Shown here: in pieces, positions 24,789 through 53,958 of the stretch
Layout: each line of letters begins with the position of its first letter
Position numbering within the stretch: the stretch's first letter is position 1
Assembly (NCBI GenBank): GCA_963735345.1
Contig: CAVTKL010000009.1
Location: 6,916 to 70,915, forward strand
Length of the DNA stretch: 64,000 nucleotides
Source of the DNA: an uncultured Thermoleophilia bacterium
GTDB taxonomy: Bacteria; Actinomycetota; Thermoleophilia; UBA2241
Direction: 5' to 3'
Notes under the pieces: model-generated
Database searches by the model: none
Told to the model about the DNA's origin: nothing
Seen by the model: only the letters and a program-made list of their open reading frames with translations
Made by a program: the position numbers and the translations under genes

Positions 24789-25445
24789 ATGAGCAGGCCT
24801 GTCACGCGCAGCGCCGGGCAGGTGGCCTATCGCGGGCCAAGCGGGGCGATCTACCTCAACCTCACCAATCGCTGCTCCGCTTCCTGTGCGTTCTGCCTGC
24901 GCGAATGGTCCGACAGCGTGTACGGCGCACACCTGTTCCTGGACGGCGAACCTGAAGCCGAGGAGGTCGTCGTCGCGATCGAGATGGAGTACCTGGACGG
25001 ACCCGCCCCAGAGGTCGTCTTCTGCGGGTTCGGCGAGCCAACCATGCGTCTTGACGTCGTGCTCGCGGTCACCGAATGGCTGCGTCTGCGGCGCATCCGC
25101 GTACGCCTCGACACCAACGGTCACGCCGGCCTCCTCAACCCCGGCGTGGACGTGCCGGCGGCGCTGGCGGCGACCGGCCTGAGCGCCGTGACCGTGAGCC
25201 TGAACGCCGCCGACTCGCTCACCTACGATCGCATCTGCAAGCCTGTCTTCGCCAAGACGCACAGGGCAGTGATCAGCTTTGCCGAACAGTGTCTCCAGCA
25301 CGGTATCGAGACGACGCTGAGCACCGTCGACTACCCCGGCGGCGACGTGTCTGGCTGCGCGGCCATCGCGGAGAGGATCGGAGCAGGGTTCCGCGTGCGC
25401 ACCTTGGTGACACCACGAGGCCGGAGCGAGGGGGACACGACATGA
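24789..25445 (+). CDS. small radical SAM protein (TatD-associated-type)
   Basis: Start at the internal Met (MSRPV). CxxxCxxC site NLTNRCSASCAFC and FCGFGEPTMR. About 218 aa. Confidence 0.65.
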   Translation: MSRPVTRSAGQVAYRGPSGAIYLNLTNRCSASCAFCLREWSDSVYGAHLFLDGEPEAEEVVVAIEMEYLDGPAPEVVFCGFGEPTMRLDVVLAVTEWLRLRRIRVRLDTNGHAGLLNPGVDVPAALAATGLSAVTVSLNAADSLTYDRICKPVFAKTHRAVISFAEQCLQHGIETTLSTVDYPGGDVSGCAAIAERIGAGFRVRTLVTPRGRSEGDTT

Positions 25446-26149
25446 CAGACAGCGGAGCCCGCATCCTTCTGGTCGATGACGAGGAGGCCATTCTGAAGCT
25501 CCTGCGTTTCCCGCTGGAGAAGGAAGGCTACCAGGTCGTGACAGCCAAGGACGGGGCTGAGGCACTCCAGATCTTCGCGCGCGAGAGCTTCGATCTCGTG
25601 ATCCTCGACCTGATGATGCCGCAGGTGGACGGCATGGAGGTCTGTCGGCGGATCCGCGCCAACAGCATCGTGCCCATCGTCATGCTGACGGCCAAGTCCG
25701 ATGAGTTCGACAAAGTGCTTGGCCTCGAGATCGGCGCCGACGACTACATCACCAAGGACAAGTTCAGTCTGCGTGAGTTCCGCAGCCGTGTTCGCGCCCA
25801 GCTGCGCCGCGCCCAGATGAGTCGCAGTTCGGAGGCGGCCAAACAGGACGTCATCAAGGTCGACAGCCTCGAGGTCGACCTGCCGAAGCGCAACGTCACC
25901 GTGCGCGACAGCAGAGTCGACCTGACGTACATCGAGTTCGAGATCCTCAAGACGCTCATCGCCCACCCGGGCCGCGTGTACAGTCGCCAACTCCTGCTCC
26001 AGCTGGTCTGGGGCGACTCGGACTACCGCGATGCTCGTACTGTCGACGTGCACATCCGGCACCTGCGCGAGAAACTCGAGATCGAACCCAAAGACCCGGA
26101 GTTCATCTTCACAGTGCGCAACATCGGGTATAAGTTCCGCGAGTTCTGA
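25442..26149 (+). CDS. OmpR-family response regulator
   Basis: 235 aa. Receiver domain (ILLVDDEE...D...K) plus a winged-helix output domain (RNIGYKF). ATGA overlap with the previous gene. Confidence 0.9.
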   Translation: MTDSGARILLVDDEEAILKLLRFPLEKEGYQVVTAKDGAEALQIFARESFDLVILDLMMPQVDGMEVCRRIRANSIVPIVMLTAKSDEFDKVLGLEIGADDYITKDKFSLREFRSRVRAQLRRAQMSRSSEAAKQDVIKVDSLEVDLPKRNVTVRDSRVDLTYIEFEILKTLIAHPGRVYSRQLLLQLVWGDSDYRDARTVDVHIRHLREKLEIEPKDPEFIFTVRNIGYKFREF

Positions 26150-26191
26150 CATGACGTTCGTCTAGGCGCCGGGCGAGGTCACGCCTATCCC

Positions 26192-27982
26192 ATGCTGTTC
26201 CGCTCCGTCAAGAATTGGCTCACCCTGCTCATCCTGGCTCTGGTCGCGCTGGCCATGGCGGTCGCTTGGGTCTACGTCGTGCCGCCCCTGCTCGACCGGC
26301 TCGACCAGCAGAAGCTCATGGACCAGCGTGGCAACGCCAAGCTCGTCAGCGACACCGTGAACCAGTGGGTCAACTACGACGAGGGAACCGACCAGACCGT
26401 CATCACCGACCCCGCTTTCCTGGAGACCCTCGTGGGACGCCTTGGCCTGCGCTTGAGCGCTCGCGTCGTGGTCCTGACACGGGAGCTGGAATCGAGCTAC
26501 GACACCGGCGGCTTCGACGAGTTGCGCGTGCGGGACTTCCCCATCGCGGAGCGCGCCCTGCAGTCCGGAGAGGTCGTGCAGAGCGTCACCACGTTTCCCT
26601 CGGGCCGCTACGCGGCCACGGCACTGCCCCTGTTCGCCGACGGCAGCCCCGACACCGTTGCCGCCGTCGTACTGACCATCGCTTCGCTCAGCGACGTGGA
26701 CAAGGCCGTGGCCGCCGTGCAGCGGCAGCTCTTCCTTGCTCTGATGCTGGCGCTGGGCCTCAGTCTCGTCCTCGGGTATATGGTCTCGTTCTTCATCGCC
26801 CGGCGGCTCAAGCGCATCGAGCGCAGCGCCGAGGCCATCGCCACGGGCGACCTGACGGCCAAGGTGCCGGACGCGCACGATGACGAGATCGGTCAGCTGG
26901 CGTCGGCCTTCAACATCATGGCCGAGCGGCTGAGAAACGCCTTCGCCCAAGTGGAGAATGAGCGTGACCGCGTGGAGGTTCTGCTCAACGACCTCAGCGA
27001 AGGCGTCATCGGCCTCTCGGCGGAAGGGACGATCATGATCGCCAACCCGGCAGCCGGAGAGCTGCTCGGCGAGCGCGGGCTTCTCGGCCGTGACCTCGAC
27101 GAGGCCTTCCCCGCCGACGTCGGCGAAGCCTGGAGAGAATCGCGCAAGCACGGCACCGTGGAGGCCGCCGTCTTCGTCCACGGCGAGCAGACGCTGGAGG
27201 CGACGACATACCCGGTCGGCAGCGGCGCCGACTTCACGTCGATCGTGGTGCTGCGCGACGTCACCGCCCGGGCGCGCCTTGAGCGCGCCCGGCGCGATCT
27301 GATCGCCAACGCCTCGCACGAGTTCAAGACGCCGCTCTTCTCGCTTGCAGGCTCGCTTGAGCTCATCGACGAAGGCGACTTGAGCCCCGACGAGCAGCGT
27401 GACTTCCTGCAGATCATGCGGCAGCAGATCGATCGCTTGAGCAATCTGGCAGTCAGCATGCTCGACCTCTCACGGGTCGAGGCGGGATCCTTCGAGCTGC
27501 ACCCCGAGCACGTCGACCTGGCGACAGTCACCAACTCCGTGCTCGACGAGTTCCAGGCGCAGGCGCAGGCCAAAGGCTTGTCGCTGATCCTTGAAGGCGG
27601 CCACGGAGAAACCGCCTGGTGCGACGAGCAGCGATTGGCCCAGGTGCTGCGCGCGCTGATCGACAACGCCATCAAGTTCTCGCCGCCGGGGAGCACGGTG
27701 CGCGTCACAGCCGCGGCCGACGCAACGACCGCGACGCTCATCGTCAGCGACAACGGCCCCGGCATCCCGGAGGAGGAGCTGCCGCACATCTTCGAGAGGT
27801 TCCACCGCGGCAGGCAGGAGAGAGCGACCACGTCCGGCGCGGGACTGGGGCTGTCCATCGCGCGCGAACTCACCGAGTTGCTGGGAGGGCATATCTCTGC
27901 GGCCTCGCGGAACGGCGAGGGGGCGGCCTTCACCGTGCTCTTGCCGCGCGTAGCCCCCCGCCGCGCCGCAGATCGATCGTGA
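26192..27982 (+). CDS. sensor histidine kinase (TM-HAMP-PAS-HisKA-HATPase)
   Basis: H-box ANASHEFKTPL; N, G1 and G2 boxes (DNAIKF, DNGPGI, GAGLGLSI). Confidence 0.9.
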   Translation: MLFRSVKNWLTLLILALVALAMAVAWVYVVPPLLDRLDQQKLMDQRGNAKLVSDTVNQWVNYDEGTDQTVITDPAFLETLVGRLGLRLSARVVVLTRELESSYDTGGFDELRVRDFPIAERALQSGEVVQSVTTFPSGRYAATALPLFADGSPDTVAAVVLTIASLSDVDKAVAAVQRQLFLALMLALGLSLVLGYMVSFFIARRLKRIERSAEAIATGDLTAKVPDAHDDEIGQLASAFNIMAERLRNAFAQVENERDRVEVLLNDLSEGVIGLSAEGTIMIANPAAGELLGERGLLGRDLDEAFPADVGEAWRESRKHGTVEAAVFVHGEQTLEATTYPVGSGADFTSIVVLRDVTARARLERARRDLIANASHEFKTPLFSLAGSLELIDEGDLSPDEQRDFLQIMRQQIDRLSNLAVSMLDLSRVEAGSFELHPEHVDLATVTNSVLDEFQAQAQAKGLSLILEGGHGETAWCDEQRLAQVLRALIDNAIKFSPPGSTVRVTAAADATTATLIVSDNGPGIPEEELPHIFERFHRGRQERATTSGAGLGLSIARELTELLGGHISAASRNGEGAAFTVLLPRVAPRRAADRS

Positions 27983-28037
27983 CCGTCCTCGGCGGCGTCC
28001 CGGCCGCAGGCGCCGAGAGTCGAATGGAAGGGATGGA

Positions 28038-29204
28038 ATGCCGACGCTGAGAGGATTCGCCGTGGGCGCTGTAGGCGGGGTATTGGGCGCAGCCTTCGTC
28101 CTGACCGTCCTGGTTCTGGTCTTCGACCTCGGTCAGAACACGAAGACCGTCGTGACCATCGCGCCATCCCCAGTGGCATACGCCTCCGGCGCCCAGGGCC
28201 TGTCGCCCGACCAGATCTACAAGAGCTTGTCGGGCGGCGTCGTCATGGTCCTTTCGAGCTTCGGCGATGAGGGAGTCGGCCCCTTCGGCGATGCACAGAC
28301 CGGACAAGCTCTGGGCACGGGGTTCGTGGTCGACGAGGACGGCTACATCCTCACGAACGCCCACGTCGTCAACGATCAGGGCCAGTCGGCGAGCTCGGTC
28401 ACGGTCGTGTTCCGCGAGAACGACGCCGAGACCACACGCGTCAAGGGAGAGCTCGTGGGTGTCGACGTGAGCAGTGACGTGGCCGTCATCAAGGTCGACC
28501 CAAAGGGCCTCGCCCTACGACCGCTGCCCCTGGGCGACTCCGGCAAGGTGATCGTCGGGGAGCCTGTCGTCGCCATCGGCAACCCCCTCGGGTACGACTT
28601 CTCGATCACCTCCGGGATCGTCTCGGCCACGGGCCGTAGCCTGCACGCCCCGAACGGCATGACGATCGCCAACGGGATCCAGACCGACGCGGCGATCAAC
28701 CTGGGCAACTCGGGGGGTCCGCTCATCGATGGCCGAGGGCGGGTGATCGGCATCAATGAACAGATCGCGTCGCAGTCAGGCGGAAGTCAGGGTCTCGGCT
28801 TCGCCGTCCCCATCAACACCGCCGTGCGCTCTCTGAACCAGCTCCGCGAGAACGGCAAGGTCGAGTACGCGTGGCTCGGCGTCACGGGGCAGACGCTGTC
28901 GAGCGACGTCGCCGCCATGTTCGGGATCGACACTTCAGGAGGCGTCCTTGTCGAGGAGGTTTCGCCGGGGAGTCCGGCGGCGGCGGCGGGCATCAGGGGC
29001 GGCGGCCACATCGTCTCGATCCAGGACCAGACCTTCACGCTCGGCGGCGACATCATCGTCAAGATCGATGCGACCCCGATCGCGAGCTTCGACGACCTCG
29101 TCGCCTACCTCTCCGGCAAACGGCCAGGCGACGAGGTCACGTTGATCCTCGATCGCGACGGCGAGCATCTCGAACTCACGGCCACACTCGCCGAGCGCCC
29201 GTGA
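28038..29204 (+). CDS. htrA: HtrA/DegP-family trypsin-like serine protease with PDZ domain
   Basis: Catalytic triad motifs TNAHVV ... D ... GNSGGPL, and a C-terminal PDZ domain. Confidence 0.9.
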   Translation: MPTLRGFAVGAVGGVLGAAFVLTVLVLVFDLGQNTKTVVTIAPSPVAYASGAQGLSPDQIYKSLSGGVVMVLSSFGDEGVGPFGDAQTGQALGTGFVVDEDGYILTNAHVVNDQGQSASSVTVVFRENDAETTRVKGELVGVDVSSDVAVIKVDPKGLALRPLPLGDSGKVIVGEPVVAIGNPLGYDFSITSGIVSATGRSLHAPNGMTIANGIQTDAAINLGNSGGPLIDGRGRVIGINEQIASQSGGSQGLGFAVPINTAVRSLNQLRENGKVEYAWLGVTGQTLSSDVAAMFGIDTSGGVLVEEVSPGSPAAAAGIRGGGHIVSIQDQTFTLGGDIIVKIDATPIASFDDLVAYLSGKRPGDEVTLILDRDGEHLELTATLAERP

Positions 29205-34971: not shown

Positions 34972-34993
34972 CGGTGTTTCACGTGAAACACCG
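34972..34993. repeat. 22-bp perfect palindrome CGGTGTTTCACGTGAAACACCG (copy 1 of a duplicated motif)
   Basis: The sequence is identical to its own reverse complement. It shares a 20-mer TGTTTCACGTGAAACACCGC with the second copy at 35247-35266. Confidence 0.85.
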
Positions 34994-35246: not shown

Positions 35247-35266
35247 TGTTTCACGTGAAACACCGC
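35247..35266. repeat. second copy of the TGTTTCACGTGAAACACCGC motif (16-bp palindromic core)
   Basis: Exact 20-nt repeat of the motif at 34975-34994, about 270 bp away, in an ORF-free convergent intergenic region. Confidence 0.85.
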
Positions 35267-39737: not shown

Positions 39738-40925
39738 ATGAAACGCGCCGCATGGACCGTCCTCAACCCGGCGGGCAGCCGCAGGGTCATCGTCACGAAG
39801 ACGCTGCCGGGCTCCCGGTGGCAGCGTCTCCTGATCGCCGCGGACTGCCGTGTCGAGGTGGCGGAAGGAACGCGCACTCTGGGCGAGGAGGAGCTCATTG
39901 CGGGCATCGGCGATCGCTGCGACGCCGCGATCGGCCAGCTCACCGAGCCTTGGTCGGCGAGCGTGCTCCGGAACCTCGCCGCTGCCGGAGCCCTTGTCTA
40001 CAGCGCCTACGCCGTGGGCTACGACAACGTCGACGTGCCCGCTGCGACGCGTCTCGGCCTGCCCGTCGGCAACACGCCGGGAGTACTCACCGAGGCTACG
40101 GCCGAGATGGCGGTCGCCCTCACCTTCGCCGCGGCGCGGCGTGTGGCGGAGGGCGACCGGCACATGCGCGTCGGCGCGTTCTCGGGTTGGCTGCCGACGC
40201 TGCTGCTTGGCGAGCTCCTGTGGCGCAAGACGCTCGGCGTGGTGGGCACGGGGCGCATCGGCGCCGCCTACGCACGCATGATGCTTGAGGGCCACAAGAT
40301 GGACCTCGTGTACTACAGCCCGAACGCGAGCGGGGACCTCGAGCGGCATGCCGCCGAGTACGGGGCCTTTCTCTCGGCACGGGGCGAGGCACCGGTGTCT
40401 TGCCGACGCGCCACGACCCTCGTCGAGTTGCTGCGCGGAGCCGATGTGGTAAGCCTGCACCCTGCACTCAATGAGGCCACGCGCCATCTCATCGGACGTC
40501 CCGAGCTCGCCGCCATGAAGGAGACCGCGGTGCTCGTCAACACAAGCCGCGGTCCCGTCGTCGATGAGGCTGCGCTGATCGACCACTGCCGCACCCACCC
40601 GAGCTTCCGTGCCGGGCTGGACGTCTACGAGGACGAGCCTCTCATGAAGTCCGGGCTCGCCGAGCTCGACAACGTGGTGCTCACTCCCCATCTCGGCTCG
40701 GCCACAAGCTGGACACGCGAGGGCATGGCGACGCTCGCGGCCGCGAACGTCGCCGCGATTCTCAGGGGCTGGCCGGTCTGGCCGAGGGCGAAGACGCTCG
40801 CCGACATCCTGCCCTTTCTCGAAGACCCCGCGCCGCAGGCCGCGCCGAGCATCGTCAACGCGGACGCGTTGGGGCTGCGCAGGCTTCCGCCGACAGCCGC
40901 GGATGATCACGCGGAGGCGTCGTGA
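39738..40925 (+). CDS. D-isomer-specific 2-hydroxyacid dehydrogenase (glyoxylate/hydroxypyruvate reductase-like) with a C-terminal extension
   Basis: Start at the internal Met (MKRAAWTV). NAD-binding motif GVVGTGRIGAAYA and catalytic R/E/H residues. The extra 60 or so C-terminal residues are unexplained. Confidence 0.8.
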   Translation: MKRAAWTVLNPAGSRRVIVTKTLPGSRWQRLLIAADCRVEVAEGTRTLGEEELIAGIGDRCDAAIGQLTEPWSASVLRNLAAAGALVYSAYAVGYDNVDVPAATRLGLPVGNTPGVLTEATAEMAVALTFAAARRVAEGDRHMRVGAFSGWLPTLLLGELLWRKTLGVVGTGRIGAAYARMMLEGHKMDLVYYSPNASGDLERHAAEYGAFLSARGEAPVSCRRATTLVELLRGADVVSLHPALNEATRHLIGRPELAAMKETAVLVNTSRGPVVDEAALIDHCRTHPSFRAGLDVYEDEPLMKSGLAELDNVVLTPHLGSATSWTREGMATLAAANVAAILRGWPVWPRAKTLADILPFLEDPAPQAAPSIVNADALGLRRLPPTAADDHAEAS

Positions 40926-42006: not shown

Positions 42007-46912
<4,906 letters not shown>

Positions 46913-47042
46913 TCAGGAAACGGCCCGGGTGCTGCTGTGAGTATAGCAGATTCGGGGTTGGGGAGCGAGCCGCAGACACTCAAGAAACTCCTGCAAAGAG
47001 ACCACTTATTCGGCCCTTCGAAGAAGACCGTGGAGATAGGTG

Positions 47043-47531
47043 TCAGTGATCCCCTGAAGAGGCTCGCAAGGCCGCCTCGATGGCGGCGCGGAGGTGAGGA
47101 TCACGCACCTCCACGGCCATCGCTCTGGCGCCCTCAAGAGCTTCACCGGAGAGTCTCTCCGCGGGCTCCTTCGCAGGCTCCGCAGGGCGCTCCGAGTCAT
47201 CGGGGGGGCGCACAATGCGTTCGACCACGAAACGCAGCCGCTTCACGGGCTGCCCCGGCGCGACCTCGTCCATGTGGGCGAGTATCTCGCCGCTGAGATA
47301 GGTCAGCTCATTCGCCCAGATCGACGACGCGCACTCCACCGTGAGCACGCCGTTGAAGAAGCGGCTGGGGCGCGCGCAACTGGAGACGGGCGCGCCCGAG
47401 GCTCGTGTCCAGGCACTGAAGGCGCGCGCTTGATCGCTTCCGGCGAGGCGCTGCAGAGCGGGATCGAGGATCTCGCTGAGCGGTCTCGGCAGACTACTGC
47501 GCTGCCGCTCGGTGTCACCCTCACGACTCAC
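47043..47531 (-). CDS. dciA: DUF721/DciA-family protein (putative replicative-helicase loader)
   Basis: 162 aa. DUF721 hallmark WANEL within VLTVECASSIWANELTYL. Conserved recF-gyrB position (as Rv0004 / YaaB). Confidence 0.7.
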   Translation of the reverse strand: MSREGDTERQRSSLPRPLSEILDPALQRLAGSDQARAFSAWTRASGAPVSSCARPSRFFNGVLTVECASSIWANELTYLSGEILAHMDEVAPGQPVKRLRFVVERIVRPPDDSERPAEPAKEPAERLSGEALEGARAMAVEVRDPHLRAAIEAALRASSGDH

Positions 47532-48778
47532 AGCGCATCAATCGCCGGCGTCGAGGGTCCGGCCGCTTCCGCCGGCGCGTCCCGCGACGCCGGGTCCACG
47601 GATCCCTGCAGTGGCAGTTGGATCAGCGTCGCTTGAGCCAACTCCTCCTCTGTGAAGTACTGGCGATTGGTGGTCGTGATGATCGTTTGCCCTGCCACCG
47701 ACAGTTGGCGTATCAGCAGCCTCCGGCGCGCGTCGTCGAGTTCACTCATGACATCGTCGAGAAACAAGGTGCCGACCGCATTCGTCCTGGCGGCCGCGAC
47801 CTCCTGCTCCGCGAGGAGCAGGGCGAGGACGGCGAGACGCTGCTCGCCCTGAGACCCGAACAGCCGCAAGTCCCGCCCTCCCGGCGGCAGTTCGACCGGC
47901 CCGCAGACCGAGCCTGCAAGATCCGCGGTCTGAGCCGGCGGGCCGGAGCCGCCCGACGAAGGCGTGGCGGCTTCGAAGAACCGCAGATCATCGCGGTGCG
48001 GACCATACAGCGACAGACCCCGGCTGATCTCTCCAGGACGGCGACGCAGCAACTCGTCCCGGAGAGCGTCTTGCTCAAACCCGACGGCCTCGAGCTGCGT
48101 CACGAGTTGTAGCCGGTAGGTCTCATTCTGCGGAGTCAATGCGGCGGCGGCGGCCGTGTAGCGACCGCCGAGCTCCACGACCAGGTCGCGGCGGCGGCGG
48201 CCAAGCTCCGTGGCGGCGCGCGCGAACTGCGTGTCCCAAGGGTCCAGGCCGCGCGCTGAAGCACCGGCCTTCACCGACGCCAGTTGGGCGTTACGTTGCC
48301 GCAACGCTTCCTGCAGGTCACGAACAGCGGCCGCGTATTGTTTGTCAAGAGCGCCGGCGTAGGTGTCGAGATGAGCGCGACGCCGGGCCGGACTGCCTTT
48401 CACCAGCAGGAGACTCTCAGGCATGAAGAGTGAGATCTGGCTGCGACTGCGCAAGTCCTCCAGTGAGCTCACCTCGACGCCCGACCAGCGCACGCGCTTG
48501 CCCTCGCGCGGCGCGTAGCCGAACTCGACTTCTGTTGGCGCTCTGGAGCCGCCCTCGAGCGTCAACTCAATGCGGGAGAAGTGGGCTCCCCACAGTACGA
48601 GCTTCTCTTCGCGCCGGGTGCGCGGAGAGGCGCCACGCAGTGCGAACCAGGCGCCCTCCAGGAGATTCGTCTTGCCGGTGGCGTTCGCGCCCACCACGAC
48701 ATTGAGGCCGGGGCCGAAAGCGACAACGGCATCACAGTACGAACGGAAATTGATGAGCCTCAGTCTGGAGACGAACAC
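47528..48778 (-). CDS. recF: DNA replication and repair protein RecF
   Basis: GTG start. Walker A GANATGKTNLLEGA. Confidence 0.9.
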   Translation of the reverse strand: MFVSRLRLINFRSYCDAVVAFGPGLNVVVGANATGKTNLLEGAWFALRGASPRTRREEKLVLWGAHFSRIELTLEGGSRAPTEVEFGYAPREGKRVRWSGVEVSSLEDLRSRSQISLFMPESLLLVKGSPARRRAHLDTYAGALDKQYAAAVRDLQEALRQRNAQLASVKAGASARGLDPWDTQFARAATELGRRRRDLVVELGGRYTAAAAALTPQNETYRLQLVTQLEAVGFEQDALRDELLRRRPGEISRGLSLYGPHRDDLRFFEAATPSSGGSGPPAQTADLAGSVCGPVELPPGGRDLRLFGSQGEQRLAVLALLLAEQEVAAARTNAVGTLFLDDVMSELDDARRRLLIRQLSVAGQTIITTTNRQYFTEEELAQATLIQLPLQGSVDPASRDAPAEAAGPSTPAIDAL

Positions 48779-48975
48779 ACGCGATACTCCACTCCCTGCA
48801 CGGCGACCACGTCATCAAGCTGGAGAATCCGGCCGCGGCGCTGCTCAAGTTCACCGTTCACCGTGACCTCGCCACCTTGCACCAGGATCTTGGCGTGACC
48901 ACCCGTACCTGCAGCGCCGGCGAGTTTGAGAAAGGACCCCAGCGACAGCGGTCCGCTGACGAAGACGTCGTTCAG
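48760..48975 (-). CDS. yaaA: S4-like RNA-binding protein YaaA/RlbA homologue (small hidden gene, about 70 aa)
   Basis: Reverse-complement translation of the dnaN-recF gap: (L/M)NDVFVSGPLSLGSFLKLAGAAGTGGHAKILVQGGEVTVNGELEQRRGRILQLDDVVAVQGVEYRVCSSPD*. It aligns along its length with B. subtilis YaaA as recalled from memory (ITLGQFLKLA..GG.AK..L....V.VN.E.DNRRGRKL..GDVV...G). No in-frame ATG/GTG/TTG is available upstream; the best start is CTG at 48975-48973, adjacent to the dnaN stop. It overlaps the recF start by 19 nt. It is missing from the ORF track for this reason. Confidence 0.6.
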   Translation of the reverse strand: MNDVFVSGPLSLGSFLKLAGAAGTGGHAKILVQGGEVTVNGELEQRRGRILQLDDVVAVQGVEYRVCSSPD

Positions 48976-50084
48976 TTGCTCAACCGGATCGGCATGATGA
49001 GGTATGTGAAGTCTTCGCCGGCGCCACTGATGATGCCGGGGCGCAATGGGCTGGTGAAGCGCAGAATCACGGCGGCGTCATCAACGGCGTCGATACCCTC
49101 TATGAGGTACACGGGACTGAACCCGATCTCGAAGGGCTCGCCTGAGAAGTCCACCTCGAGCACCTCTTCAGCTTGACCGACATCCTGCGTCAGGGCCTTC
49201 ATCGTCAGTTTGTGGTCGGCGAACGATAGCCGCAGCGGCACGCTCTTCTGGGCAAGGAGGCTGACGCGCCTGGCCGCGGCCATGAGCTCGTCCCTTCCGA
49301 GGCGCACCTCGTGGTCGAACGCATCAGGAATGAGCTGCCGGTGGTTGGGGAATTGGCCGTCGATGAGGCGCGAGGCGACCCACACTGTGCCCGTGGGTCC
49401 GGCCAGCCGGAAAAGGGCCTGGTTCGCGGTGATGCTGATATCGATCTCGCCGGAGCCCATCGCGGACGCGAGCCGCGACACTTCGGCAAGCGCCTTCACA
49501 GGGACGATCGCCTGCACTTCCGTCGCCAAGGCGTGATCGAGCTTGGTCTCCTTGACCGCCAAACGGTAGCTGTCGGTGGCCACCATTCTGAGTGTATCTC
49601 CGAGAATCGTCATCAGGACGCCCGTGAGGATAGGCCGTGTCTCGTCGCGTGACGCCGCGCGGCCGACCTTGTTCAGCGTCTCGATGAACGGCTCTCGGCT
49701 GACGGAGAATCCGTCGCCGACCTCGAACGTCGACGTCTGCGGGAAGTCGCTCGCCGACCAGGCATTGAGGGAGAACTTCGCCTCTCCTGCGCGGACTTCG
49801 AGGGCCGTCTCGCCGGCTTCGATCATCACTCTGTCTGTGGGCAGGTTCCTCACGATATCGGAGAAGAGACGCGCCGGGATGACGAGTTCGCCGTCCCGCT
49901 CGACGTCAATCGCAAGGCTCGCCTTGATCGAGAGTTCCATGTCGGTGGCGAACATGTCGAGGCGTCCGTCGGCGGCCTGAAGAAGAATGCCGGAGAGCAC
50001 AGGCAGAGCACTGCGCGTAGACACGCCTCGGGCGAGGATCGTCAGTTTGTCGACGAGCTGTGAGCGATCACACGAGAACTTCAT
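48972..50084 (-). CDS. dnaN: DNA polymerase III beta sliding clamp
   Basis: 370 aa, three-domain clamp. MKFSCDRSQLVDKL N-terminus. Confidence 0.95.
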   Translation of the reverse strand: MKFSCDRSQLVDKLTILARGVSTRSALPVLSGILLQAADGRLDMFATDMELSIKASLAIDVERDGELVIPARLFSDIVRNLPTDRVMIEAGETALEVRAGEAKFSLNAWSASDFPQTSTFEVGDGFSVSREPFIETLNKVGRAASRDETRPILTGVLMTILGDTLRMVATDSYRLAVKETKLDHALATEVQAIVPVKALAEVSRLASAMGSGEIDISITANQALFRLAGPTGTVWVASRLIDGQFPNHRQLIPDAFDHEVRLGRDELMAAARRVSLLAQKSVPLRLSFADHKLTMKALTQDVGQAEEVLEVDFSGEPFEIGFSPVYLIEGIDAVDDAAVILRFTSPLRPGIISGAGEDFTYLIMPIRLSN

Positions 50085-50395
50085 CCCGACTCCTTATGAC
50101 AATCAAGAGAAGAGTTTCTCTTCATCATCGTCATAGCACCTGTTGACAATGCGGAGAGCGACGCTTCTTCCTGCACTGGGGCGTCATTGGCCTCTGCAGG
50201 GATCTGTGGACAAATACACGGGATCGGGCGCGTTCTCCGCAGCCCCCTGCGGTACAGGCGAAGCATAGCGGATTTTCATGTTGAGACGACGACAATATCC
50301 ACCGTCAACGCGAGGCTCTTCACACTTGCATGTGGAGAGGCGCCGGGGTCCTCTCGTGAGTCACTCGCGAGATCGTGCCCGGAAACGGAACCCCG
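50085..50395. promoter_or_regulatory. dnaA-dnaN intergenic region with DnaA boxes and the most AT-rich stretch of the window (oriC candidate / DUE)
   Basis: Perfect TTGTCCACA (rc at 50206-50214), TTGTCAACA (rc at 50141-50149) and weaker boxes near 50295 and 50331. AT-rich runs at 50091-50150 and 50250-50300. Confidence 0.6.
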
Positions 50396-51838
50396 TCAGC
50401 GGCTGGATCGTAGCCGTGTGCTGATAAGGTCGATCAAGTCTTGGAGTTGCGGATCGTGGCCGTCCTTGAGTTGGCGCTCCACCTTGTCGACCGCGTAGAT
50501 GACCGTCGTATGGTGGCGTCCCCCGAAGCGTGCGCCTATCTGCGGCAGCGAGGTCTCCGTGAGTCTGCGCGTCAGGTACATCGCGATCTGTCGGGCATAG
50601 GCGACTTCCTGAGTGCGACGGTTGCCGCGCAGGTCGTTGACGTGAAGCCCGAACTGCCTGGCCACCTCCGCCTGGATCATCTCGACGGTGATGGCGTGCT
50701 GGTAGGCCTGCGGGACGATGTCCTTGAGCGCTTCCTTGGTCACGTCGAGGGTCACCTCGACGCCGCGGAACGAGGCGAAACTGACCACACGGGTGAGCGC
50801 GCCATAGAGCTCGCGGATGTTGGTGGTGACACGGGAGGCGATCCACTCAAGGACTTCCGGCTCGCGGATCTGGAAGCCTTCCCACTTCACGTGCTTGCGG
50901 AGGATCGCGATGCGCGTCTCCAGGTCAGGCCGGCTGATGTCGACGACCACACCCTGGCCGAAGCGAGAGCGCAAACGCTCTTCGAGTTCCACCAACTCGC
51001 GTGGCGGCCGATCGGACGTGATCACGATCTGCTTGCCCGCCTCGTAGAGCGCGTTGAATGTGTGGAAGAACTCGACCTGCGTCTGCTGCTTCTCGACGAG
51101 AAACTGGACGTCGTCGATGAGCAGGACGTCGTTCTGGCGGTACGCCTGCTTGAAGCCGTCGATGCGGTTCTTGTCGGTGACGGCGTTGATGAAGTCGTCG
51201 GTGAAGCGCTCCACCGTCACGTACTTGACCTGCAGATCAGGGTGCTGCTGGTGTGTGGCGTGAGCGATGGCCTGGATGAGATGGGTCTTGCCGAGCCCGG
51301 TGTCGGCGTAGATGAACACCGGGTTGTACGCGGTCGCCGGCGACTCGGCGACGCTGCGCGCCACAGCCGCCGCGTACTGATTGTGCGGCCCCTCCACGAA
51401 GCGGTCGAAGAGGTAGCGCGGATTGAGGTCGCCAGAGGCTTGGGAATGGCGCGTCTCAGGAGCGACGCGAGAGGCCTTCGCCGTGGGTCCTCGCTTGTTC
51501 GGGGCAGGGTCCTCCCCCTCCGTTGACACGGGACCCAGGGACGGCAGCGCCGCCGCACGAGCGTCGACGACGACGCGCACGCTCACTGCGTCGCCAAGCA
51601 CTTCGCTGAGCGCCTCGGCCACCATCCCGGCGAGGCGCTTTTCGATCCAGTCCCGGGCGAAGTCGTTGGGCACGCCGATGACGAAGGCTCCATCATCGAG
51701 ACCGAGAGGCAGCGTGCGATCGAACCAGAAGCGGAAGGCGGATTCGTTGAGGCGTCCGCGAAGATGGGCCTTCGCGGTGTCCCAGATGAGTGTCAGTTGG
51801 TCGTCCGTGGCCGCCTCGTGGTGTGATTCCCCGAACAC
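50396..51838 (-). CDS. dnaA: chromosomal replication initiator protein DnaA
   Basis: 480 aa. AAA+ Walker A GDTGLGKTHL and a C-terminal DNA-binding domain (VAYARQIAMYLTRRLT). GTG start 29 nt after the upstream gene stop. Confidence 0.95.
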   Translation of the reverse strand: MFGESHHEAATDDQLTLIWDTAKAHLRGRLNESAFRFWFDRTLPLGLDDGAFVIGVPNDFARDWIEKRLAGMVAEALSEVLGDAVSVRVVVDARAAALPSLGPVSTEGEDPAPNKRGPTAKASRVAPETRHSQASGDLNPRYLFDRFVEGPHNQYAAAVARSVAESPATAYNPVFIYADTGLGKTHLIQAIAHATHQQHPDLQVKYVTVERFTDDFINAVTDKNRIDGFKQAYRQNDVLLIDDVQFLVEKQQTQVEFFHTFNALYEAGKQIVITSDRPPRELVELEERLRSRFGQGVVVDISRPDLETRIAILRKHVKWEGFQIREPEVLEWIASRVTTNIRELYGALTRVVSFASFRGVEVTLDVTKEALKDIVPQAYQHAITVEMIQAEVARQFGLHVNDLRGNRRTQEVAYARQIAMYLTRRLTETSLPQIGARFGGRHHTTVIYAVDKVERQLKDGHDPQLQDLIDLISTRLRSSR

Positions 51839-51867
51839 CCTGGCTATCCGCGGGGATCCCTCGTCAG

Positions 51868-52764
51868 TCAGAGGATGCTTTCCAGGAGATGAAGACCTTC
51901 CTCGGCCAAGGCGCGCTTGCCGTCGCCGACCGCGTGGATGAGGCCCATCTCCTGCAGTATAACGAGTTCTCGGAACGCGGTCGCCGGGGCGACGCCGAGT
52001 TCTTTGGCGACGGCGGTGGGGCCAGCGGCGCCCAACTCCATGAGCAGGACCAGGACCTTCGTCTGTCGGGTCGAGAGCTTCACCTTGGGAGGCGACACGA
52101 GCGGCGCCAACTCGGCGGCGTGGGCCGGCATCTTGATCGTGAACACCGCGCCCCCGCCCAGGTTGTCCTCGACGGTGAGCACGCCGCGCAGGAACTGGAG
52201 CGACTCGCGCGCCACCGGTAGTCCCGACCCTACTCCACGGATGAGGTCGCGCTGCATGGCGGTCGCCGTGGTGAAGCCCGGCAGGAAGGCGCGCTCCTTG
52301 TCGTCGACGCCGGGGCCGTGGTCGGAGATACGGATCGTCTGGCCGTTGTCGAGGATAGTGATCACCACATCCTTGAAGTAGGCATGGAGGAGGTTCTCGA
52401 TGAGTTCCTGGAGGACGGTGAAGGGGATCTGACCGCCCTGCTCACGGCATTGGCTGTACGTCTTCTCCGCTAGAGAGGCGATGAGCGCCGGCAGGTCCTT
52501 CTCCTCGACGATCACGACCCGCGGCGGCGACGTGAGGGCATCGTAGATCGCGATACGGGGGGCGCCGCCGCCGGAGGGGACATCGGGAAGTCCGCGAGGT
52601 GCGGGCGATGGGTCAGTTGGTGTGTCGACAACGGGGACCGCGGCGCCTGCAGCCGGCTTCTCAGGCTGGATCGCGGCCTCCCTGTCGGCGAGCAGCCTGT
52701 CGAGGAAGGACTCCATAGGGGGCACGAGTATAGCAGAGCCGTTTGCCCGCACCGGAACCGTCAT
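51868..52764 (-). CDS. GHKL (HATPase_c) ATPase domain fused to a C-terminal winged-helix HTH; unknown N-terminal domain; origin-proximal, co-directional with dnaA
   Basis: 298 aa. Bergerat-fold N-box (ELIENLLHAYF), G1 (DHGPGVDD) and G2 (GVGSGLPV) motifs. C-terminal HTH LSTRQTKVLVLLMELGAAGPTAVAKELGVAPATAFRELVILQEMGLI. No kinase H-box. The N-terminal 120 aa have no recognisable family. Confidence 0.6.
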   Translation of the reverse strand: MTVPVRANGSAILVPPMESFLDRLLADREAAIQPEKPAAGAAVPVVDTPTDPSPAPRGLPDVPSGGGAPRIAIYDALTSPPRVVIVEEKDLPALIASLAEKTYSQCREQGGQIPFTVLQELIENLLHAYFKDVVITILDNGQTIRISDHGPGVDDKERAFLPGFTTATAMQRDLIRGVGSGLPVARESLQFLRGVLTVEDNLGGGAVFTIKMPAHAAELAPLVSPPKVKLSTRQTKVLVLLMELGAAGPTAVAKELGVAPATAFRELVILQEMGLIHAVGDGKRALAEEGLHLLESIL

Positions 52765-52805
52765 CGGGGCTCAAGAAACGCGGTTTTGCAGCCCGAACGG
52801 CAGAG

Positions 52806-53129
52806 TTGTCCACAGGGTGTTCACGAAGTGTGGAGAGTGTTCCCGCCACATGACGCGCGCCCTCCCGACGGACGCCTGTTGTGGAGAAGACGGTTTCAGT
52901 CCACTCCTCGTGGTAGACCGCCGGCCGTCTCGGAGCGAATCGATGGCGCCCGCGCTCAAGACGCCGACCGGCTTCGACGATCGCCTTGAAAAGACCTGTA
53001 AATCGGCATGTTCGACGGCGACATTCCGGGTCTTCGCCTCGGCGAACCGACGTCCAGTCGTCAACCCCTTATCCACGGCGATTGTGAGCCTGATAGCACG
53101 GCAAAGCGGTCTTATCCACATTCTCCACA
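52806..53129. promoter_or_regulatory. cluster of at least 6 DnaA-box 9-mers (second oriC module / DnaA autoregulatory region)
   Basis: TTGTCCACA at 52806-52814; rc TGTGGAGAG at 52829; rc TGTGGAGAA at 52880; TTATCCACG at 53069; perfect TTATCCACA at 53112-53120 directly abutting TTCTCCACA at 53121-53129. Confidence 0.6.
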
Positions 53130-53194
53130 GGGGAGTGCGAACGCCGGCCGAGGGCTCTGAAAAGCAGTCTCAGGCGCCGCGCTCGTGCGCTATA

Positions 53195-53328
53195 CTGGCT
53201 CTGTCCTGCGGAGCTCCTGGATGAGGAGCTGAGAAGGCGCTTCCTAGCGCCGACGCGTCGTACCTGACCACCGTCGAGGTGGCGGCGCCCTCTGGCGCTG
53301 CTGGGTAATGCCAGCGAAGGGAGAGATC
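53195..53328 (+). promoter_or_regulatory. TPP (thiamine pyrophosphate) riboswitch
   Basis: Contains the conserved GCTGAGA (53228) and ACCTGACC elements and the 3' pyrophosphate-sensing helix CTGGGTAATGCCAGCGAAGGGA directly upstream of thiT. The ATG inside this helix (53308) is the false start used by the ORF track. Confidence 0.8.
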
Positions 53329-53331
53329 GTC

Positions 53332-53958
53332 ATGACCCCCACACCCATCCCCCGCCCGGGCTCTGCGTCAGGAGCAGGCACCGCGATCGACGCGCGGGTG
53401 CGACTGAATCTCAACCCTGCCTACTGGGGCGTGCAGACCATGGCGGAGATGGGCATCGCGATCGCTCTCGCGGCGGTGCTGGGCCAGTTGCGGCTGTTCG
53501 TGATGCCGCAGGGCGGATCTGTGAGCCTTGAGTTGCTGCCGATCATCTTCGTCGCGGTGCGCCGAGGGGTCGTGCCGGGGCTCACCGCCGGACTCCTCTA
53601 CGGCTTGGTGCAACTCCTGCTGCCCGGAGCCTTCGTCTACCACCCGGTCCAGGCGGCGCTCGACTACCCTCTCGCCTTCGCCGCCCTCGCTCTGGCTGGT
53701 CTCGTGGTGGTGCGCGGGTGGCGCGGCTTGATCCTCGCGGTCGCTTTGGCGGTCGCCGGCCGCCTCGTGTTCCACGCGCTGTCGGGTCTGATCTTCTTCG
53801 CCGAGTACGCGCCTTCATGGGAGAGTCCCTGGTTGTACGCGATCACGTACAACCTGCTGTACCTGGTGCCGGAGGGGGTGCTGACTGTCCTTCTCCTCTG
53901 GCCGCTGCTGAAGGCGTACGACGCGGCCTTCCCGGGGCGCCGGCGGGGGGCGAGGTGA
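53332..53958 (+). CDS. thiT: thiamine transporter ThiT (ECF-type S component, YuaJ family)
   Basis: Start at the second ATG (MTPTPIP). Signature GQLRLFVMPQGGSVSLELLPIIF and 6 TM helices. Confidence 0.8.
   Translation: MTPTPIPRPGSASGAGTAIDARVRLNLNPAYWGVQTMAEMGIAIALAAVLGQLRLFVMPQGGSVSLELLPIIFVAVRRGVVPGLTAGLLYGLVQLLLPGAFVYHPVQAALDYPLAFAALALAGLVVVRGWRGLILAVALAVAGRLVFHALSGLIFFAEYAPSWESPWLYAITYNLLYLVPEGVLTVLLLWPLLKAYDAAFPGRRRGAR

Follow-up and report, generated by a model that had tools for sequence, protein, structure and literature searches.

We analysed a 64-kb window of the chromosome of a Thermoleophilia bacterium (Actinomycetota), to which all coordinates below refer, and the locus around dnaA in this window is most likely where replication of the chromosome begins. 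Two clusters of DnaA boxes, which are real and far above chance, lie on either side of dnaA and of the gene upstream of it. One of them, module D (50085-50395, minus strand), occupies the dnaA-dnaN spacer and is the candidate oriC core; the other, module U (52806-53129), is an array of six boxes between two putative divergent promoters. Computation clearly favours D as the module that unwinds. The locus may thus be a two-part, dnaA-linked origin with D as the unwinding core and U as a distal DnaA-binding array of the Bacillus/Helicobacter type, a reading to which we give about an even chance of being right. Thermoleophilia is a deep, mostly uncultured class of Actinomycetota, and we know of no characterised replication origin from it.

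Genes were assigned by Pfam and NCBIfam profile matches on the proteins of the window. The product of dnaA (50396-51838, minus strand) matches TIGR00362 with 503 bits and Pfam Bac_DnaA, Bac_DnaA_C and DnaA_N, and that of dnaN (48972-50084, minus strand) matches all three beta-clamp Pfam domains; the spacer between the two genes is exactly 311 bp. Upstream of dnaA lies a gene for a 282-residue protein with a GHKL ATPase domain and a winged helix-turn-helix (HTH) domain, hereafter GHKL-HTH (51868-52716, minus strand), and beyond it, on the plus strand, are thiT, the gene of a thiamine transporter, and the gene of thiamin pyrophosphokinase (TPK).

DnaA boxes in the window and in related loci

The exact box TTRTCCACA occurs three times in 64 kb (at 50205 on the minus strand and at 52806 and 53112 on the plus strand), each time inside spacer D or U. 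Shuffled sequences contained 0.25 such boxes on average, and none of 100 shuffles reached three. With up to one mismatch, 15 boxes were observed against 8.2 expected, and seven of the 15 are located in the two spacers, which make up about 1.2% of the window. We also scanned the window with a weight matrix trained on the boxes of relatives alone, using a cut-off of at least 10 bits. D had three matches, U six and the remaining 63 kb 14, which gives densities of 9.6, 12.7 and 0.22 per kb and an enrichment over the rest of the window of 44-fold for D and 57-fold for U. An earlier reading of this DNA, made from its letters alone (the sequence-only reading), had placed boxes in the dnaA-dnaN gap and at 52806-53129, and had described the latter cluster, about 1 kb upstream of dnaA beyond the GHKL-HTH gene, as the stronger. 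Each box was found at its place, both clusters are conserved in 39 species, and the box density, which that reading had proposed as a check, bears it out. The weaker sites that it listed in D are also present, but two of them, at 50233 and 50279, lack conservation in the relatives and probably arose by chance.

A scan with the DnaA protein gave about 55 loci from Thermoleophilia-type metagenome-assembled genomes (MAGs). The comparison set consists of 39 full-length loci, one per species genome, and the alignment comprises 40 sequences. The DnaA proteins of the 39 relatives are about 62-86% identical to that of the window. The relatives have a common gene order, with thiT and TPK pointing one way and GHKL-HTH, dnaA, dnaN and recF the other, and this shared order fixes the lineage as Thermoleophilia-type. 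In these loci, perfect boxes have densities of 3.4 per kb (U), 0.8 per kb (D) and 0.003 per kb (349 kb of flanks); for boxes with one mismatch, the corresponding values are 3.4, 5.8 and 0.115.

The boxes of U, two perfect and four with one or two mismatches, are the strongest and best conserved of the locus. All six keep their position and orientation, with at most two mismatches, in at least 34 of 38 genomes. The outermost box on the dnaA side, U6 (TTGTCCACA; 52806-52814, plus strand), is perfect in the window and in 34 of the 38 relatives. It is followed by U5 (CTCTCCACA; 52829-52837, minus strand) and U4 (TTCTCCACA; 52880-52888, minus strand), which have no more than two mismatches in 34 and 37 of the 38 relatives, respectively, and by U3 (TTATCCACG; 53069-53077, plus strand; 36 of 38). 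At the other end, the tandem boxes U2 (TTATCCACA, perfect here and in 31 of 38) and U1 (TTCTCCACA) occupy 53112-53129 on the plus strand, are oriented toward thiT and are followed by GGGG. The spacings are nearly invariant: 9 bp for U1-U2 (39/39), 43 bp for U2-U3 (37/39), 189 or 190 bp for U3-U4 (33/39), 51 bp for U4-U5 (37/39) and 23 bp for U5-U6 (39/39). The length of the U3-U4 spacer is fixed though its sequence is poorly conserved. An open reading frame (ORF) of 116 codons within U (52771-53121) was considered as a gene and rejected; it has no Pfam match, and the alternation of the U3-U4 spacer between 189 and 190 bp breaks its frame. Separately from the boxes, the U consensus of the relatives contains inverted 10-mers, GTTTTGCAGG and CCTGCAAAAC, about 210 bp apart (alignment columns ~437-452 and 655-668). 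In the window they correspond to ~52999 and 52781-52795, the first copy being degenerate, and they may be a site for another DNA-binding protein.

Module D contains one perfect and five other conserved boxes. The perfect box, D6 (TTGTCCACA; 50205-50213, minus strand), faces dnaN, as do the abutting tandem boxes D7 (CTCTCCGCA) and D8 (TTGTCAACA) at 50141-50158 on the same strand; with at most two mismatches, D6 and D8 are each kept in 32 of the 39 relatives and D7 in 27. The reverse orientation is found in D2 (CTCTTCACA; 50316-50324, plus strand), which is degenerate in the window and usually reads TCGTCCACA or TTGTCCACA in the relatives (36/39 at the same tolerance), and in D3 (ATATCCACC; 50295-50303, plus strand; 24/39). 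D2, D6 and D8 are thus each kept in at least 32 of the 39. The last box, D1 (CTCTCCACA; 50331-50339, minus strand), again faces dnaN, scores 11.4 bits and is kept in 16 of 39. Spacings are 55 bp for D6-D7 (31/36), 9 bp for D7-D8 (30/31) and 22 bp for D2-D3 (23/32). No shared motif besides DnaA boxes was found in U and D, since the 8-mers that are common to them or repeated in them are all box derivatives (TCCACAGG, TCTGCACA).

Duplex stability and the module predicted to unwind

The most AT-rich 20-, 30-, 50- and 100-bp stretches of the 64 kb, of which the overall G+C content is 67%, all lie within 50059-50158. Nearest-neighbour energies put the least stable 30-mer (50093-50122) and 50-mer in the same interval. 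The related loci, 6-13 kb long, agree with the window: in 38 of 39, the 30 bp of lowest stability in the entire locus have their centre 20-28 bp before the dnaN ATG, as they do here. We further used a simplified, single-run model of stress-induced duplex destabilisation that was written for the present analysis. Over 47-56 kb, the model opens 50079-50150 alone at sigma -0.055 and 50044-50158 at sigma -0.065, and with a domain of 30-64 kb the opening is still solely at 50.0-50.2 kb. Among the relatives, 38 of 39 have their opening maximum 16-33 bp before the dnaN ATG, and the median share of the opened base pairs is 98% for D and 1.7% for U. The softest patch of U (52985-53014) adjoins no box, and its 30-bp energy is -40.1 kcal/mol, against -35.9 kcal/mol for the site in D.

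These calculations point to 50093-50135 as a candidate DNA unwinding element (DUE), which contains the least stable DNA and lies inside the stretch opened by the stress model. The sequence-only reading had located the most AT-rich stretches in the dnaN-dnaA spacer and had taken the spacer as a DUE candidate, and both statements agree with the composition of the window and with the duplex stability and predicted opening, which give the same picture for the window and for 38 of the 39 relatives. It had also held that which module unwinds could not be decided from sequence; this was partly too cautious, as the computation clearly prefers the dnaN-proximal module. In described split origins, a spacer gene lies between two box clusters and only one of them has a DUE (PMC4285127). 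In the present locus, U (52806-53129) and the boxes of D (50141-50339) flank dnaA and GHKL-HTH, and by computation only one subregion, D, has a predicted DUE directly beside its box cluster.

The predicted opening site directly follows the D7/D8 pair and a GC cluster, an order of elements that is also seen in B. subtilis, S. coelicolor and Rubrobacter xylanophilus. The cluster (GGTGC, consensus GGGGC; 50136-50140, minus strand) comes after the box pair and is succeeded by a tract of purine-rich triplets, TAT GAC GAT GAT GAA GAG AAA (50115-50135, minus strand), with the consensus TRT GAY GAY GRY GAG GAG in at least 35 of the 40 sequences. In 22 of 35 anchored sequences, a gap of 5 or 8 nt separates D8 from the start of the tract. 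Several other roles were considered for it. A hairpin in RNA or single-stranded DNA (ssDNA), formed by the GAY tract and the following pyrimidine tract, was rejected, since the consensus fold has only -2.7 kcal/mol and is almost without covariation; a terminator-like match at 50123-50109 did not exceed the level of shuffles. Variation with a period of three suggested an upstream ORF, but its starts, stops and frame relative to dnaN vary by species. An MtrA box (GTCACAGCG) was likewise discarded, since a match with at most one mismatch was present in five of 39 relatives; U is not enriched in this motif.

The arrangement beside D8 can be set against the basal unwinding system (BUS) described by Pelliciari et al. 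(2021), which consists of a DnaA box with at most two mismatches and an optional second box with at most four, oriented toward the unwinding site. Next, beginning no more than 16 nt from the box, come at least three 3'-NAN-5' triplets in a row, which lie on the strand opposite to 5'-TTATCCACA-3'; in Table S2 of that paper, box and trios are written 3' to 5'. In the window, D8 has one mismatch and D7 three, the two abut and face dnaN, and the pair is kept in about 30 relatives. Reading the table together with the B. subtilis sequence, we take the dnaN-sense strand to carry the box or boxes, a GC gap and CTA-type triplets, with the 3'-GAT-5' trios on the other strand. The orientation of the box pair, a GC cluster of 5 nt, the periodicity of the triplets and the AT-rich distal region are common to the BUS and the present locus. 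The spacing and the polarity of the triplets depart from the rule, and the likeness is one of layout and not of demonstrated mechanism.

The putative promoters at U and the GHKL-HTH gene

The promoters of the locus were predicted from conserved TATACT elements; a scan with the sigma-70 consensus gave no matches. The putative promoter of the GHKL-dnaA operon has an extended -10 element, TGCTATACT (52727-52735, minus strand), which lies 10 nt before the GHKL-HTH ATG. Its conservation in the alignment of 40 sequences is 90% or more, and 14 of the 15 sequences examined have it unchanged. No Shine-Dalgarno sequence was seen before this ATG, and the promoter appears to be of the leaderless type. On the plus strand, a TATACT at 53191-53196, which is a conserved block of the U alignment, is the putative -10 of thiT. 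An element in D, GCTATGCT (50262-50269, minus strand), resembles the two TATACT elements of U, belongs to a block at least 90% conserved in the same alignment, and may be the -10 of a dnaN promoter.

The ORF of GHKL-HTH was called as 51868-52764, and we place the true start at the ATG at 52716 because homologues are about 282 residues long. The HATPase_c domain of the protein is of the histidine-kinase type, and its N, G1 and G2 motifs are all intact. The N-terminal MESFLDRLLAD is invariant; there is also a linker rich in Pro and Ala, and the HTH is at the C-terminus. It matched no specific NCBIfam or PDB family, and an AlphaFold2 (AF2) model was poor (pLDDT 58) and unfit for structure search. 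In every related locus that covers the position, the gene lies immediately upstream of dnaA. From the GHKL-HTH stop to the dnaA start there are 29 bp; given this short gap and the leaderless-type promoter, dnaA is most likely transcribed from the GHKL promoter, and the two genes are apparently co-transcribed. The GHKL-HTH protein is a candidate for a lineage-specific partner or regulator of DnaA.

DnaA boxes are therefore located in the control region of the dnaA unit, as in DnaA-autoregulated promoters, and the placement of U fits an autoregulatory operator of dnaA. In number and rigid geometry, the U boxes exceed the needs of simple repression and are similar to the upstream part of the split origin in Bacillus, Helicobacter and Clostridioides (PMC4285127, PMC7561715). 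No module of boxes plus trios was found in U, where U1/U2 and the following GGGG run into GC-rich DNA and the thiT promoter with no run of T- or A-centred triplets.

Proposed mechanism

We infer DnaA binding, unwinding at D, co-transcription, autoregulation and cooperation between U and D as follows. DnaA would fill the fixed array of mostly low-affinity boxes in D, which ends in D7/D8 oriented toward dnaN. Beyond this pair are the GC cluster, the triplet-periodic tract and the least stable DNA (~50093-50135), and there the duplex would open. The helicase would then be loaded at the opened D; a DciA gene is nearby. U, 2.5 kb away beyond dnaA and GHKL-HTH, would bind DnaA at low concentration and may have two roles. 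It could be the operator for autoregulation of dnaA, and it could be a distal region of DnaA oligomerisation that feeds or stabilises the complex at D by looping, as incA/B does for incC in Bacillus and oriC1 for oriC2 in Helicobacter.

Points against a two-part origin and alternative explanations

Several observations weigh against this two-part reading. The first concerns the GC skew, which the sequence-only reading had proposed as a check and which we could follow locally, over the 64 kb. A switch from minus to plus does lie inside the window, but its best fit is 7-17 kb to the left of the boxes. With all sites, the fitted step is close to 43 kb (naive interval 39-43 kb); a fit to per-gene GC3 with strand as a covariate falls at 33-40 kb, and steps at 50-53 kb fit clearly worse (delta ~12-26). 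The fit is driven by gyrA and gyrB, both of which have an atypical AT skew. The skew signal is of low resolution and confounded, the codon bias of gyrA, gyrB and dnaN being the likely confounder, and it still counts against an origin at the boxes. The second concerns the trios: the tract beside D8 has its A-centred triplets on the box strand. A run of canonical polarity, T-centred on the sense strand (CTA CTT CTC TTT ATT GTC ATA), with six or seven triplets, is present in 17 of 35 sequences, and it begins at least 26 nt after D8 in 31 of 35 anchored sequences; in the window it reads CTT CTC TTG ATT GTC ATA and starts 28 nt after D8. Furthermore, D has only about six conserved boxes, and the origins of Streptomyces and Mycobacterium carry many more. 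The AT-rich stretch includes the dnaN ribosome-binding site, and its composition may partly serve translation. Finally, the U boxes are 70-400 bp upstream of the GHKL-dnaA -10 element and could be purely transcriptional.

One possible explanation that accommodates the last point is a single-part, continuous origin in the dnaA-dnaN spacer, with U as nothing but an operator that autoregulates GHKL-dnaA and perhaps thiT. We regard it as a serious possibility, with the chances somewhat against it. The computed opening site is in D alone, and D by itself contains both boxes and a predicted DUE; U lies exactly between two conserved divergent promoters, from one of which dnaA is apparently transcribed. 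It is well established that DnaA boxes are common in the promoter regions of dnaA, as in E. coli, B. subtilis, Streptomyces and Mycobacterium. Moreover, the origin of Streptomyces is described as continuous, and the bipartite examples of the same paper include no actinobacterium (PMC4285127). Against these points, the strongest conserved boxes are outside D, in U, where six boxes spread across 324 bp, whose orientation and spacing (the 189/190-bp spacer included) do not change among 39 species, are an excess for simple repression, and none of them overlaps the -10 element or the start of the GHKL-dnaA promoter. In addition, Bacillus, Helicobacter and Clostridioides have strong clusters on both sides of dnaA, and the upstream one has a role in the origin (PMC4285127, PMC7561715). 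If U were only an autoregulatory operator, the locus would be an ordinary dnaA-dnaN origin in a new lineage.

Another explanation, which we consider unlikely, takes the departures from known systems as signs of a lineage-specific initiation. GHKL-HTH, which is conserved about as well as DnaA, would be a dedicated regulator of the origin or of DnaA that acts at U, at D or at both. The unwinding module would be a non-canonical relative of the BUS, in which an opposite-strand GAY/GAG tract of 21 nt is placed between the box pair and the canonical trios. If this is true, the tract implies a different engagement of ssDNA or an extra factor.

The skew step at 39-43 kb, or at 33-40 kb by GC3, with 50-53 kb disfavoured, could also mean that replication starts elsewhere, for example at 33-43 kb near the skew switch or beyond the window, and that the two clusters are regulatory or titration sites of DnaA that remained beside dnaA. 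We think this very improbable. Two perfect parS sites (TGTTTCACGTGAAACA, an exact 16-bp palindrome) are located at 34975-34990 and 35247-35262, 272 bp apart in an intergenic spacer of 480 bp and about 15 kb from dnaA-dnaN; shuffles contained 0.04 sites at up to three mismatches. Their position at 35 kb can be read in favour of such a start, and the pair independently marks the window as origin-proximal. The window yielded neither a parA nor a parB gene. The usual upstream neighbours of dnaA, rpmH-rnpA-yidC-jag, are absent, the GHKL-HTH gene and a divergent thiamine-uptake operon taking their place (42007-53958); rpmH-rnpA-yidC was not found elsewhere in the window either, and its absence beside dnaA shows that the region was rearranged. 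However, the segment of 33-43 kb has no box cluster, only an isolated site with one mismatch at 39994, and no unusually unstable DNA, and in the 30-64-kb domain the stress model opens nothing but D. An offset of 7-17 kb is below the resolution of a 64-kb sample, given the gene-specific codon bias, and the architecture of D is conserved at the base-pair level throughout the clade.

We give hardly any credence to U itself as the true origin, unwinding at its own moderately AT-rich patch (~52985-53014), in which case D would be the 5' leader of dnaN with a promoter regulated by DnaA. In its favour, U has the boxes that are strongest and most conserved, gene orientation diverges there, the second least stable window of the locus is in U for 12-17 of 39 relatives, more than 10% of the predicted opening falls there in eight of 39, and D has a conserved -10-like element. 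Against it, the patch in U has a far higher stability than the site in D and lacks an adjacent box, and U takes a median of 1.7% of the opening, whereas described architectures need a cluster directly beside the DUE (PMC13643167), and U1/U2 lead into GC-rich DNA and the thiT promoter.

Other features of the locus

The minus strand carries, in order, gyrA, gyrB, a gene of the DciA family, recF, a YaaA-type S4 gene, dnaN, dnaA and GHKL-HTH; gyrA and gyrB were named by position and length alone. Read downstream from dnaA, the order dnaN-yaaA(S4)-recF-dciA-gyrB-gyrA is classical. Gene orientation diverges at U, and all eight genes to the right of it are on the plus strand.

The sequence-only reading had placed a thiamine pyrophosphate (TPP) riboswitch immediately beside U. 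A full-length match to RF00059 is indeed present at 53197-53340 on the plus strand, upstream of the Thia_YuaJ transporter gene (thiT), but its score of 30.8 bits (E = 4.8e-4) is below the gathering threshold of 54.3 bits. The alignment has a 44-nt insertion in P3, so that the element would be a TPP riboswitch variant with a long P3. Two distant relatives (L037 and L007) have full-length, sub-threshold matches at the same place (32 and 29.9 bits; E = 2e-4 to 8e-4 for the three). The context of thiT and TPK and the conservation support a divergent TPP aptamer. Since the score is below gathering, default annotation would miss the variant; neither the window nor 11 relatives had any Rfam match at the gathering threshold. 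The start of thiT is the ATG at 53332 and not that of the ORF finder at 53308, which lies inside the aptamer.

Apart from the origin, three consecutive genes at 25076-29204 on the plus strand encode an OmpR-family response regulator, a histidine kinase with HAMP and PAS domains and an HtrA-like PDZ protease, a set that presumably resembles the mycobacterial MprA-MprB-PepD arrangement. Among the collected loci, one labelled as a Methanomicrobiales archaeon MAG (L055) and one from a Calditrichia MAG (L038) carry a Thermoleophilia-type dnaA locus and are probably mis-binned. A single MAG contributed two further dnaA loci (L027 and L048), a sign that it may be contaminated or a mixture of strains.

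Significance and comparison with known systems

The layout near dnaA is what a replication specialist would expect, and the functional steps proposed for it are all inferred. What the comparison provides is a blueprint of the locus at the base-pair level for a whole clade: the identities and orientations of the boxes, their fixed spacings, the predicted opening site and the promoters. It raises the questions of whether split origins exist in Actinomycetota, whether such an origin tolerates an insert of two genes and 2.5 kb, and how strict the spacing and polarity rule of the BUS is. In addition, the conserved GHKL-HTH gene is a candidate for a new regulator of initiation. As a precedent for a split origin, an E. 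coli oriC that was engineered to be bipartite still loads helicase (PMC13643167).

The locus shares with incA/incB-incC of B. subtilis and oriC1/oriC2 of C. difficile the box clusters on both sides of dnaA. The upstream cluster is located at the promoter that drives dnaA in these species and, apparently, here. On the dnaN side, the cluster likewise ends in two boxes oriented as TTATCCACA, and after them come a GC cluster, a triplet tract and AT-rich DNA just before the dnaN ribosome-binding site (PMC7561715). The present insert, however, consists of two genes (GHKL-HTH and dnaA, ~2.5 kb) and not of dnaA alone, and the upstream neighbour is a gene other than rpmH. In the tract next to the boxes, the A-centred triplets lie on the opposite strand, with the canonical run at least 26 nt away, and the helicase-loading partner is expected to be DciA instead of DnaD/DnaB/DnaI.

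In H. pylori, as in the present locus, high-affinity boxes are found upstream of dnaA and the DUE is in the downstream cluster, and cooperation by DnaA bridging is the proposed mechanism (PMC3479198, PMC4285127). H. pylori belongs to another phylum and has another box consensus, lacks the extra spacer gene, and has a canonical trio array 3 nt from the boxes, unlike the window.

The actinobacterial origins (Streptomyces, Mycobacterium and Corynebacterium, and Rubrobacter by prediction) have in common with D the phylum, the spacer and a TTGTCCACA-type consensus (PMC4285127). In S. coelicolor and R. xylanophilus, a box pair and a GC cluster also face dnaN. Those origins are described as single-part (for Streptomyces in PMC4285127), and their canonical trios lie 4 nt beyond the second box, whereas D has about six conserved, mostly weak boxes and the strongest are in a separate array 2.5 kb away. 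DnaA-autoregulated dnaA promoters, as established for E. coli (dnaAp), B. subtilis, Streptomyces and Mycobacterium, likewise have boxes in the control region of the dnaA unit. In the present case six rigidly spaced boxes extend over 324 bp, all of them upstream of the core promoter, which is apparently of the leaderless extended -10 type, and GHKL-HTH is the first gene of the operon. The locus is therefore a familiar kind of element with unusual details, namely the split architecture, the two-gene insert and the departure from the box-trio rule.

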